Below are positions 16,705 to 62,800 of a stretch of 64,000 nt of DNA, piece after piece. Origin of the DNA: Euglena gracilis (taxonomy: Eukaryota); NCBI GenBank assembly GCA_039621445.1, contig CP154954.1, forward strand, positions 19,144,642 to 19,208,641. Reading direction: 5' to 3'. The stretch's first letter is position 1. Each line of letters opens with the position of its first letter. The translations under genes were made by a program, and so were the position numbers. Below the pieces are notes generated by a model. It ran no database searches and was not told the DNA's origin. It saw only the letters and a list, made by a program, of their open reading frames with translations.

Positions 16705-16983
16705 CGGGCTTGTGCTTAGTCGGGGTGCTAGGGGCAGGCACCCCATAGCACCCGATCCGACCCCCCTTGGGGGGGGTAGGGTTTTTTGGGGGTGCCTGCC
16801 CCTAGCAGGCACCCCCCTCCGACCCCGGTGCCTTCGGCGCCGGGGGCCCGGAAAAGCCCATTTTCAATGAAAATTTTCTGGGTCCCCCGGACCCCTATCC
16901 CCCCCCCCGGGGGGTGCCTGCTAGGGGCAGGCACCCTATAGCACCCACCCCCCTCCCCCCCCCGGTCGGTAAGCACAAGCACG
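16705..16983. mobile_element. hAT-like MITE, family 2
   Basis: CGGGCTTGTGCTTA...TAAGCACAAGCACG; TSD GTGCCTCC/GTGCCTTG (6/8). Partial relatives near 1150-1420, 10407-10540, 21852-22150 and 33650-33800. Confidence 0.8.
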
Positions 16984-18133
16984 GTGCCTTGTAACCTTTT
17001 GAGTACATTCATTGCTTACATTCTGAAGAGCAGAAACTTTGGACGTCGTCGGTTGGTGTTAAGTTGCTGCTGGCTTGTTTGAATGGCTTTCTCTGAAAAC
17101 TTGGAGAGACAAAAAAAGCAGGAGAAACATTACATACAAAATAAGGCAAAGGAGTTTCTTTCCAAATTTTTCAGGAGTAGAAAAATATCATCGATGCATA
17201 TGGCAGGGATTTTTCTTAAGGTCTCCGGGGAGCTGGCAGGGTTGAAAATGGTGCTGGCTGGAAAACAAAAGCGTTGGCTGGACCCCCCACCCTCCAGGGA
17301 GCGGTCCAGGGGCTACCGGGCTAGACCTGGCTGCCACCTGAAAACAGCCAAAGAAAAGCCCTGGGTTGGACTTGTTTTGGGCAAAATTTTGAGGCGAACC
17401 CCCCCAAAATACCAAAAATGGCCAACTTTGGCCATTTTGACCACCCCTTCAAGAGCCGTCGGCGCTTAACGACGAAATTTTCTCGGTCTAGCCGGCTTCG
17501 CCGGGCTGGAAGAACCTTGTTTCCGCTCAACACCCGGAGGGGAGAGTCCACACCCTGGCTGGGAGCCGCTGGCAATTTCGGGGAGGGTGTGCGCCTATTT
17601 TCACTGATTTCCGGCATCGGGTTAGGGTTGGGACTGGCGTGCCAAAAATAGGTATATATGTGAGAAAATTTATGTGTCTCTGTCAATTTATATGTATGTG
17701 TGTACATGTATGTATTTTTGCAATCTCCTGCAACGTTCAAAGAAACAAAACACTCACATATCAACAACATACATACACAGGTTTGTGGGAATGCATTGGG
17801 ATACATATGCCAATATGCACAATGACACGTACAAAACAATTTGAGTATAAAATGCGTATGCAAATGGACAGTTGTGGCTCGGAGGCACGCAAACACACAC
17901 ACAGACACATCACATATCATGCAGACAAAGAAATACAATACAAATGCACATGCAAATGCAAAAGAATTTGGCATCAAACTAATGACCCCCCCACTGTCGG
18001 GTTGGCCAGTACCGAGGACCCTGACTTCCCATCAGGACAGGTTGGCCGGTACTGGGTCCCTGACAACTTCCAGGGATGGACCCAAGGGGGGGGGGGGTTG
18101 GTTCCAAAAGAAAACAAACCCGAAGGATGGCAG

Positions 18134-59800: not shown

Positions 59801-62800
59801 CTATTTGGACCCCACCTGCGGAATTTTTGTTGATTTCCGCTAGAATTCCCATCAAAATGGGGGGTGCGCTTGTTGGGGGGTGCGCTTTTATTTGGACCCT
59901 GCGCTTGCGGCCCCGCGCTTCTATAAGGGGGGATTTAGGGGTTCGGTGATTCCTGTGTAGCCCTGCCTGAAGGAAACGCTGCTGTTCTCGAGGCTGGTGG
60001 ATGTGAAGCCCGACCAGATGAAGTGCTTTGGTGGCAGGGGGGGCCAGGAGACGACCCAGGACGCGAAGCCAGCAGACAAAAAAATGCACCTCCCCCCCAA
60101 CCGGTTCGACGCAAACCCCACACGTCACCGTTGCGGTGGGTGGAATCGGTGCCCAATATCCTGTTCTTCGGCAAACTGCCGTGCCGGGGACAAAACGCTC
60201 AGCCAGACATTCATTTAGTGTGTTCACAAATCCGATTGTGAACACAAAATTTTTTTTGGTGAACACAGGTGAAAATATTTTTTGTGAACTGAAACGTCAA
60301 ACTTTTGTGAATGTAAACATTTCTAAAAGTTGGTGTACTTTACTTAAACTCGGACTGATCTGTTGACACCATAGCCACACTTGTTGGACTTGTTCAACTT
60401 GTTCAACTTGTACGACGTTTTTGGTGAACACAGGTGAACACAAAATTTTTTTTGGTGAACATTGGTGAACACAATTTTTTTTTTTGGTGAACATAGGTGG
60501 CACACAAATTTTTTTTTGGTGATACACATGATACACAAATATTTTTTTTGGTGAACACACTAACTGAATGTCTGCGCTCAGCCGTCTCGCCAACCTGTTA
60601 GAAAGGTCGTGGAAAAAAAAGTTGCTGCAAATCAGGCACATGGGTCAAACGGTTGTCCACAGATTGGGGGAGGGCCACACTCAAGAGCACAAAAATTCGA
60701 CACGGGCGAATACCCCTCACAAAAAAAACCAGTCACAAGGCGCTTCAGCCCCGGACAACCCATTTGGCTCAACTTCCCAGAGGGGTGGGGTCAGCCAACA
60801 TCCTTCTTCCAGCAAGCGCATATCCCCCCCCACGCCCAACGACCACGTAAGGTTCATCTCCTACCGGGGGGGGGGGTAAGCCGCTAATGTTTGTCTCTGA
60901 CCAGGGAGGCAGGTAGTTAGACAAGGGGGGTGGACCCCAGCTTCGCAAAAACAGGCCAAGATGAGAATATATGGTCATTTTCAACAAAATTAGAAAAAAA
61001 ACTTCTCTGTGACATGCAAATGTAAAAAAAAAGGGGAAATGACACAATATTTCTCCACAATTATTGAACCATGATCGTATACAAAAAGGTCAAATCTGAC
61101 TGTTGGACAAACCCAGGCATTGGACAGGGGGGGGGGTGAGAGGTAGCCTCTGTAATGAACCCCAAAATGGGGGTTGTTAAGCAACGCTCTGGATGCCATT
61201 TTGACCCATTTCTAAATATTTTTCGGCCATTTTGATCGTTTGTTCCCATTTCTGCTAGCCTTTTTTGTTCGGTTGTTATTGGCTGAAATTAAGGGACGAT
61301 GAGAATGCAATTACTGCAAAAAGTCAGCTATTGAAACACCGAAATCACACTGTTTCAATATGACCCATTGCACAACGCTGAATGCATGTGACCCCCGAAA
61401 ATCCCTCGTAAAAATACACCGAAATTCGATGGGTGGTGTGGAGGTTGACCACCCCCCACCAGGCCTTCTTCCCCTATTCCCGGCGGCGTGGATTATCAGG
61501 TTACATTCTTCCTTCAGCGCCGAAGGAGCATTGGCTTGCAATCTACGGAACCACAAGCTGGCAAACAGCCTCTGGGGCACCCCTGGCCTTGGCCACATAC
61601 AATTTCAGCTGGCTGTCCTGCAGGGTCGTGCGGCGGTACAGTGTGATGGAGGGATTCCCGGGTATCAGGAGGTGGCTCAGCAGCAGGTCGCACAACTGGG
61701 CTTCGCCAGGGGATACGAGGGAGAAATGGGAATGGTGGAGGAGATGGGGTTTAAAGAGACGTTATGCTGGTAACCCTGACGAGTGTGGTGCCACATTTTG
61801 TGGTAGCCAATACGCCGAACAATTTGCGTGTCGGTTTGCCTCTTGGTCACGGACACCAAGAGGCCGACTTGATCTGGTGTGCTAGATCAATCAACTGCTT
61901 CTTGGGTTTGACCTCTCCGCCCGTCCAAGAAGTTTGCGCACACCAGGGCGACTGTGGTCGTGATGACACAAAATTTTTTTCATCACCAGCTCATAGGGTA
62001 TACAAAACTTAAAACCCGCTTCATTCCGGAGGTTCAAATGCACAAGTGACTGGGAAGAATTCTCAACCATTTGGACATCATTCAATTCCTCGGCAATGGG
62101 ACTACAGACAAAGTCGTTGGAATATTGACATTCAACTGCGGCATCACAATCCGCTTGACCATGAACATCCCAAACACGGTATATGCCTTCCCCCTCCAAT
62201 TAGAAACAAGCCTGCGAGAAGAGTTCTCCGTTGTAAAATTTAAATGCTAGGCATCTGCGGACATAAATAGACACCAGCAGAGCCCAAGATGGTACATCGT
62301 GGCATTTATGGCACAGATAATCCGAGGGCATATTTCGAAAATGGTCACTTCGAGAAACCCATTGGGTCGCATTCGTAATATTTTAAACAAAAATAAATTG
62401 TATATTGTCGGAAATCCACAAAAAATATTCAGTGATTCTGAAAAAGAAGCCTTCCAACTCCCCTGCCCTTCTGTATCAGCATTGATGAACTGAAAAAAAA
62501 GCTGAAATGGTAAGGTGACAAAATTTTTTTGTATATTTACAGGCAAATAATAAAACATAATTGTGTCCAATAACTATCCCCACTGATACCCACCGAATGA
62601 AAAATTTCTCCAAACTAGATATGACTGCAAATCACTGGCGCACTCCCTACTTACTGACTAGTGACCACAAATGGAAACTTGATCGAGGGGACAACTGGGG
62701 AGAGCGAACCAGAATACAAATAATCTGGGAGAGCATCCGTGGTCCCCACCAATAGAGCCTTGATGAAGGGCATGAAATAAGACAGGTCGTCTTTGTTGTC

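Follow-up and report, generated by a model that had tools for sequence, protein, structure and literature searches.

What the nonconventional introns of euglenids come from, and why they are cut at distances of 3 and 5 nt, have been open questions since the 1990s, and an origin from transposable elements of the miniature inverted-repeat kind (MITEs) has been proposed repeatedly without a named donor. We analysed 64,000 nt of Euglena gracilis nuclear DNA (GenBank assembly GCA_039621445.1, contig CP154954.1, positions 19,144,642 to 19,208,641), the whole of which is called the window here and supplies all coordinates below. This window unites candidate donor families with perfect 8-bp target-site duplications (TSDs), an intron, I16, that is a member of one such family, and introns which follow a published splicing code whose two spacers add up to the length of the duplication. 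An earlier interpretation of this DNA (the original prediction) held that the geometry of these introns equals a hAT-type MITE plus one 8-bp TSD, and our analysis partly supports it: on balance we judge it probable that MITE insertions with an 8-bp TSD are one source of the nonconventional introns of Euglena, and that I16 is one of them.

Intron I16 and its relatives in family D

A window open reading frame (ORF) with a MIB_HERC2 domain led, through a public transcript-derived protein collection, to the gene that hosts I16. The gene, the intron and the two other copies of its MITE family are the following.

18137..52862, minus strand: host gene with 33 exons and 32 introns, encoding the 887-aa protein P0001 (eukprot EG_transcript_2083)
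37775..38125, minus strand: intron I16, 351 nt when cut 3 nt before and 5 nt after the element (the N3/N5 rule), made of a family D copy at 37780-38122 (343 nt, CAT...ATG ends) plus 8 nt
48342-48681, plus strand: family D MITE copy D1, 340 bp, flanks identical at 5/8 positions, nested in intron I6
44075-44333, plus strand: family D MITE copy D2, 259 bp and internally shorter, flanks 6/8, nested in intron I10 at 21 nt from its 3′ end

P0001 is colinear with the minus strand from 52862 to 18137. Its 29 core exon segments match the protein without mismatch in 26 cases and with 1 mismatch in 3, and four further small exons of 12-33 nt were found subsequently. Agreement this close places the window in E. 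gracilis or a very near relative. Exon cores total 2664 nt and introns 32065 nt, each intron being 91-2932 nt long. Pfam analysis of P0001 gave MIB_HERC2 twice, together with weak matches to SAM and ADP-ribosyltransferase. Junctions were placed where the joined exons translate to P0001, which leaves 2-7 compatible positions per intron, and all 32 introns are absent from this transcript-derived protein. Over all protein-compatible solutions, 31 of the 32 lack a GT/GC-AG option (the exception is I1, with GC-AG), so that the gene is made of nonconventional introns.

Seven junctions of I16 are compatible with the protein (donors 38129..38123, acceptors 37777..37771), all of them yielding one mRNA and an intron length of 351; they include the canonical N3/N5 junction, 38126|37774, after which the exon begins with G. 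Read from 38122 to 37780, the core of I16 starts with CATAACATTGCTT and ends with AAGCAATGGTATG. The same termini bound D1 and D2, with which I16 aligns over both termini and body, and full-length alignment with D1 gives 247 matches in 298 columns as against a mean of 195 and a maximum of 205 for shuffled sequence. The flanks, ATCCGGAT at 38123-38130 and GCCCGGAT at 37772-37779, agree at 6/8 positions with 6 adjacent bases identical; register 8 scores 6 here, against 0-3 for lengths 4-7 and 9-12. The transcript-derived protein lacks I16, which consists of a MITE copy and one TSD length. I16 alone shows the hallmark of introner-type introns, in that the intron itself copies a repeated element and has a TSD at its junctions. 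We infer that it is removed at the RNA level, rather than that the transcript came from an allele without the element.

An old tandem duplication within the host gene (aa 217-387 versus aa 388-576) has introns that are pairwise common to its two halves, I16 excepted. The sister exon at 44800..44723 is uninterrupted at the I16 site, leaving I16 without a partner.

One alternative is that I16 is an old intron in which MITE sequence has replaced the interior, that ordinary MITEs pile up in large introns which themselves arise otherwise, and that 3+5=8 is chance. Against it, the ends of I16 are the family's own termini, and as their distances to the canonical junctions are exactly 3 and 5 nt, no space is left around the element for an older intron. 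We consider this combination of coincidence and accumulation unlikely, although the distribution of MITEs along the gene, described below, speaks in its favour.

Element plus 8 nt and the published splicing code

The Euglena splicing code, defined by knock-in experiments in 2025, reads 5′-N3-CDG...CH′G-N5-6|R, with paired ends, a strict 3-base spacer before CDG, 5-6 bases after CH′G and a purine as first base of the exon, and synthetic 50-bp introns designed to it were spliced (PMC12501133). We compared the introns of the host gene with this code through intron length minus the length of a CA...TG-bounded core, a measure independent of junction sliding. An offset of 8 is available in 17/32 introns, each other offset from 0 to 20 in 1-8 introns. 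For a C...G-started helix of at least 3 bp the counts are 21/32 introns at offset 8 and 0-6 at offsets 2-14. The first base of the downstream exon is a purine in 21/21 of the introns anchored in this manner, and likewise for intron X of a neighbouring paralogue introduced below. Scoring of the stem from its outermost pair was discarded because stems often reach 2 bp past CAG and blur the offset, and the CA...TG or C-started helix anchors were used instead. Two further regularities were observed at the intron ends: the 5′ spacer is frequently GGC, which lengthens the stem to GCCAG...CTGGC, and all introns with a single possible mRNA (n=20) have a junction repeat of at least 1 nt, where chance at 0.25 per base predicts about 44%.

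Twenty-one of the 32 introns are a paired element plus 8 nt, which is the published N3-CAG...CTG-N5 code. The arithmetic of the original prediction, in which the splicing rule removes the paired element together with 3+5=8 nt, is correct and agrees with that code (PMC12501133). Its further claim, that the mRNA is restored whichever way the element is inserted, would follow from the geometry and acquires a condition from the code: a CAG...CTG element with an 8-bp TSD satisfies all sequence requirements in either orientation if base 6 of the TSD is a purine.

In the mechanism that we favour, the inverted ends of a transcribed element would pair so that the stem begins at the first base of the element, and nonconventional splicing would cut at 3 nt upstream of the 5′ CAG and at 5 nt past the 3′ CTG, removing the element and 8 nt. 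In a fresh insertion those 8 nt amount to one copy of the TSD, so that the mRNA of the pre-insertion gene would be restored in either orientation. Base 6 of the TSD would become the first base of the downstream exon and should, according to the published code, be a purine. I16 would be a family D copy spliced by such cuts. Afterwards the TSD and most of the terminal inverted repeats (TIRs) would decay while the pairing core stays, and introns would grow by further MITE insertions. The 3+5 spacing may itself have been shaped by the 8-bp TSD.

MITE families and young introns in the window

The elements of the window, other than the family D copies given above, are listed below.

24270-24526: family A MITE, 257 bp, TSD ATGTGGAA (8/8), nested in intron I27
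51375-51633: family A MITE, 259 bp, TSD GTCCACCC (8/8), TIR 12/12, nested in intron I2
42206-42472: family A MITE, 267 bp, flanks 7/8, nested in intron I13
26262-26562: family A MITE, 301 bp, amid a long (CA)n microsatellite (26016-26659), nested in intron I25
42808-43114: family B MITE, 307 bp, CAG...ATG ends, TSD TTTTGGAC (8/8), nested in intron I12
45018-45336: family B MITE in opposite orientation, 319 bp, CAT...CTG ends, TSD TTCGGGTC (8/8), nested in intron I9
16705-16983: family B MITE, CGG...ACG ends, flanks 6/8, downstream of the stop codon of the host gene
19728-20163: MITE, 436 bp, TIR 15/15, TSD ATACGGTG (8/8), nested in intron I30
29443-32122: non-autonomous element, 2680 bp, CAGGGCG ends, TSD GTGGCAAG (8/8), located in intron I22 at 20 nt from its 5′ end and containing the element at 29892-30092
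29892-30092: element, 201 bp, GG-starting TIRs, TSD TTCTAAAT (8/8), nested in the 2680-bp element
6217-7479: element, 1263 bp, CAGGGCG ends, TSD GTTCTTCA (8/8), outside the host gene
60204-60574: MITE, 371 bp, CAGACA ends, TSD CGCTCAGC (8/8), between exons of the neighbouring paralogue and hence nested
21853-22149: imperfect element

All six exact 8-bp TSD pairs named in the original prediction are where it had placed them, abutting inverted ends of the form CAG/CAT...CTG/ATG, and both of its imperfect elements were located as well (16705-16983 and 58183-59965, flanks 6/8 each). A scan filtered for 12-nt TIRs identical at 10/12 positions or more, TIR and TSD not of low complexity, an element length of 60-3000 and flanks matching at 8/8 recovered 10 pairs of TIR and TSD in the true register, while 30 shifted control registers averaged 2.3 and never gave more than 6. 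Among the 10 pairs, eight begin with CA; one of the remaining two is the GG-starting element at 29892-30092, the other a tandem-repeat block at 58313-59260. Without the filter the counts were 27 and 11, chiefly microsatellite matches. The TIR+TSD elements are genuine and not chance, and they make up at least six families of non-autonomous cut-and-paste transposons of 201-2680 bp that duplicate 8 bp of target, with families A, B and D represented by 3-4 copies each. When TSD lengths of 4-12 were compared, 8 scored best for I16, intron X, D1, D2 and the element at 42206, while the TSD of 26262-26562 is uninformative because that copy was inserted in a CA microsatellite.

The sequence into which the MITE at 51375 was inserted (51340-51375), where a C/G run precedes GGGGTCCAC, resembles the 3′ portion of that MITE's own family, which makes this a MITE inside a MITE. 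The tandem-repeat block belongs to a region at 58300-59332, inside intron X, that has tandem repeats of 43, 70 and 206 bp as well as inverted 12-mers flanked by palindromic CTCTAGAG (58313-59260). The scan scored it as a TIR with TSD, but it is not MITE-like in appearance.

Two further introns were examined for the signature found at I16.

58178..59968, minus strand: intron X, in the neighbouring paralogue, to which the N3/N5 rule gives a length of 1791 nt, element at 58183-59965 with CAGGGC...GCCCTG ends, flanks 6/8
52713..52803, minus strand: intron I1 of the host gene, 91 nt, CGG...CCG ends, a 14-bp perfect stem, flanks 6/8 in register 8

The paralogue is represented by its C-terminal part (56828-63686, minus strand), upstream of the host gene on the same strand, with matched exons 48-87% identical to P0001 and 55-91% identical to P0002, a second protein of the transcript-derived collection. 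Intron X, whose start at 59968 is also the end coordinate of the region covered by the original prediction, interrupts a stretch (aa 800-854) that forms one exon in the gene for P0001, and the predicted join is in frame and homologous to P0001. A protein search for the paralogue's own transcript gave only P0001 and P0002; the latter is 60-91% identical to the neighbour-paralogue exons and so derives from another locus. As no own transcript was found, intron X is placed by homology alone, and the paralogue, to which no transcript protein corresponds exactly, may be silent or a pseudogene.

The flanks of X, CCTTCAGG and GCTTCGGG, match at 6/8 positions with register 8 the best, and from these letters X appears to carry the same 8-nt signature as I16. 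I1 probably carries it too; its register is ambiguous, with 7/12 matches at length 12 in addition to the 6/8 at length 8. Under a binomial model with the match rate of 0.276 found in flanks, a match of at least 6/8 has a chance of about 0.007 per intron. The 8-nt repeat that had been expected of young introns was positive in the few cases available, both paralogue- or position-specific introns, I16 and X, showing 6/8 in the predicted register. That I16, X and I1 all reach 6/8 in the element+8 register (ambiguous for I1) argues against coincidence, as does a published new intron with an 8-nt repeat (PMC4770533).

Such repeats have another proposed source, the repair of staggered double-strand breaks, which would leave 8-nt repeats at the junctions as scars and take in any stem-forming filler as the insert. 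The authors of PMC4770533 proposed this for their own eight-nucleotide repeat, and X and I1 agree with it in having TSD-like flanks but no demonstrated MITE family, no family copy of either having been found elsewhere in the window. I16 on the other hand is homologous over its whole length to two copies that have 8-nt flank repeats of their own at unrelated sites. Perfect 8-bp TSDs moreover flank eight CA-type elements located in introns or outside genes, so that an insertion process which duplicates 8 bp and acts on these ends exists in this genome. Break repair strikes us as a highly improbable source of the repeats at young introns, and MITE insertion remains the reading that we prefer.

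A number of observations weigh against this reading, and several of them are what accumulation of MITEs in introns of other origin would predict. All 11 TSD-flanked MITEs within the gene are nested in larger introns (I2, I6, I9, I10, I12, I13, I22, I25, I27, I28 and I30) at 20-1053 nt from the intron ends, and none is an intron itself, which rules out a reading of the listed MITEs as introns of the host gene. Exons, at 2664 nt of about 34.7 kb, make up less than 8% of the gene, so that nesting is also expected from random insertion. Across the 21 anchored introns the TSD register has 58/168 matches (0.345) against 0.276 in flanks (P ~0.03); the slight excess is at positions 4-8 adjoining the junction, where the base preferences of the code (a G-rich 5′ spacer, the purine at the exon start) could cause it. 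When I1 and I16 are removed, the remaining 19 anchored introns show no trace of a TSD, with 46/152 matches (0.30). In a comparison of intron termini with the rest of the window, the expected correspondence between intron ends and MITE TIRs held for I16, which matches family D, and for no other intron; the others matched their own inverted partner, paralogous introns and exons, or a local duplication. The offset-8 anchor is missing in 11/32 introns, and the CAT...ATG ends of I16 fall outside the published CDG/CH′G signature. Empty paralogous sites were not found in the window with flank-joined queries for 13 elements, the only match, for 51375, being through G/C runs. The older introns neither favour nor oppose a MITE origin.

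I9 (45526..44803), I22 (32142..29211) and X (59968..58178) start with CAGGGC and end with GCCCTG, the hexamer that also ends the elements at 29443 and 6217. This is suggestive of one family comprising the three introns and the 2680-bp and 1263-bp elements, perhaps, a hexamer match being too short for a test in one window.

The host gene has other features of note. Three micro-exons on the minus strand, at 46418-46429 (12 nt), 20521-20532 (12 nt) and 50592-50609 (18 nt), lie between nonconventional introns and came to light only when peptides were searched for exactly. On the minus strand there are two copies of the exon for aa 169-187, at 47483-47539 and 48080-48136, with the same translation and within a local duplication of about 300 bp (47286-47590 versus 47894-48187); one of them could be defunct or could serve as a mutually exclusive exon. 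Intron I17 contains a 420-bp (ACAT)n array (36647-37068), and similar arrays are at 57110-57549 and 62881-63114.

Transposon superfamily and comparison with known intron donors

MITEs of the hAT superfamily and the maize element Ds share an 8-bp TSD, CAG/TAG-type ends and the target pattern nTnnnnAn, the end consensus of hAT elements is YARNG, and a hAT element can act as an intron. The eight CA-type elements with 8/8 flanks conform in TSD length, and for decayed copies register 8 is the best of 4-12. T occupies TSD position 2 in 7/8 exact TSDs (P = 0.0002), in keeping with the Hermes/hAT target pattern nTnnnnAn (PMC10368747). On the strength of TSD length, CAG-type ends and this T, hAT is our best guess for the CA-type elements, and a hAT-like transposase would be what moves the MITEs.

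The elements may also be real donors of introns that belong to a different superfamily with 8-bp duplications, such as Merlin, P, Mutator-like or Zisupton, which we regard as rather unlikely though not far-fetched. Two Merlin families with 8-bp TSDs and conserved GG ends have been reported in E. gracilis (PMC8101967), and the 201-bp element at 29892-30092, which starts with GG, is possibly Merlin-like and of a different type from the CA elements. The candidate donor elements start with CA, unlike Merlin as described in that paper. Their ends are divided with respect to the hAT consensus: CAGGG (51375, 19728, 29443 and 6217) fits YARNG, while CAGGC, CATGC, CAGAC and CATAC fail at the fifth base. 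A hAT assignment is further weakened by TSD position 7, with A in only 3/8 exact TSDs (P = 0.38, not significant), and by the absence of a transposase domain among the 129 non-low-complexity ORFs of at least 120 aa in the window. No Pfam family was found in 6 ORFs of the 2680-bp element, and no transposase family in 10 ORFs in and around that element and elsewhere.

In the literature on euglenids, a MITE-like origin was proposed in 2013 from inverted repeats and junction repeats, no transposable elements of euglenids having then been identified (PMC3935182), and the suggestion is repeated in the 2025 code paper (PMC12501133). A strain-specific new intron in gapC of E. agilis, described in 2016, has eight-nucleotide direct repeats for which double-strand-break repair was suggested (PMC4770533), and a 2024 review draws CAG and CTG as TIRs and calls the junction repeats TSD-like (PMC11282704). 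Earlier suggestions of a transposon origin were accordingly more specific than the original prediction allowed when it called them general, extending to TIRs and TSD-like repeats (PMC11282704) and to an 8-nt repeat (PMC4770533). In the open full-text literature, supplements excepted, we found no paper that names donor families or hAT for Euglena, describes CAG...CTG MITEs with 8-bp TSDs, or equates 3+5 with the length of a TSD. Already published are the proposal of a MITE origin and one case of a new intron with an 8-nt repeat; concrete donor families, one intron that is a family member and the 6/8 signal in both of the introns that are position-specific are new.

The introns of the host gene resemble euglenid nonconventional introns in their non-GT/AG ends, CAG at +4..+6, CTG at -8..-6, paired ends, 3- and 5-nt spacers, a purine leading the downstream exon and short repeats at the junctions (Milanowski et al. 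2014, 2016; PMC12501133). The papers that propose a MITE origin for these introns (PMC3935182, PMC11282704 and PMC12501133) name no donor family, whereas here MITE families with 8-bp TSDs adjoin introns and one intron is a member. Outside euglenids there is a likeness to the introner elements of Micromonas pusilla and other algae, non-autonomous transposons with TIRs and TSDs that become introns and whose TSD aids exact removal (Huff et al. 2016, via PMC11282704). Introners are however spliceosomal: the element brings one splice site, and a 3-nt TSD, which has to supply AG, brings the second (PMC11282704). Here, by contrast, the code is based on structure, the TSD need only offer a purine at base 6, and its 8 nt fall 5|3 on the two sides of the junction. 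In Fritillaria borealis and Amoebophrya, introns derived from MITEs likewise have TIRs, TSDs and non-GT/AG ends, and represent a mass gain in one lineage (PMC11282704, PMC7789003). They differ from the present case in that a modified spliceosome is presumed, TSDs are 3-5 nt and, as summarised in the same two sources, there is no 3/5 stagger around the stem.

Removal of the putatively hAT elements described here would be exact by geometry, unlike the splicing of Ds. The latter uses cryptic spliceosomal sites and is imprecise. Ds elements were reportedly spliced from maize exons in work attributed to Giroux et al. in 1994.

The hypothesis becomes quantitative in that it predicts an 8-nt repeat in the element+8 register that is most pronounced in introns specific to a strain or paralogue. 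A wider proposal can be made tentatively, as a possibility that we would stop short of calling probable: the 3-nt/5-nt spacing would be fitted to the 8-bp TSD of hAT-like CAG...CTG MITEs, each exonic insertion with a purine at TSD base 6 would become a scar-free intron, splicing would act as a genome-wide tolerance of transposons, and most of Euglena's ~70% nonconventional introns would be decayed MITEs grown by nested insertions. Should the MITE hypothesis hold, Euglena would present an excision system, non-spliceosomal in appearance, and a transposon family that are matched to one another base by base, and this would account for a genome with hundreds of thousands of such introns.

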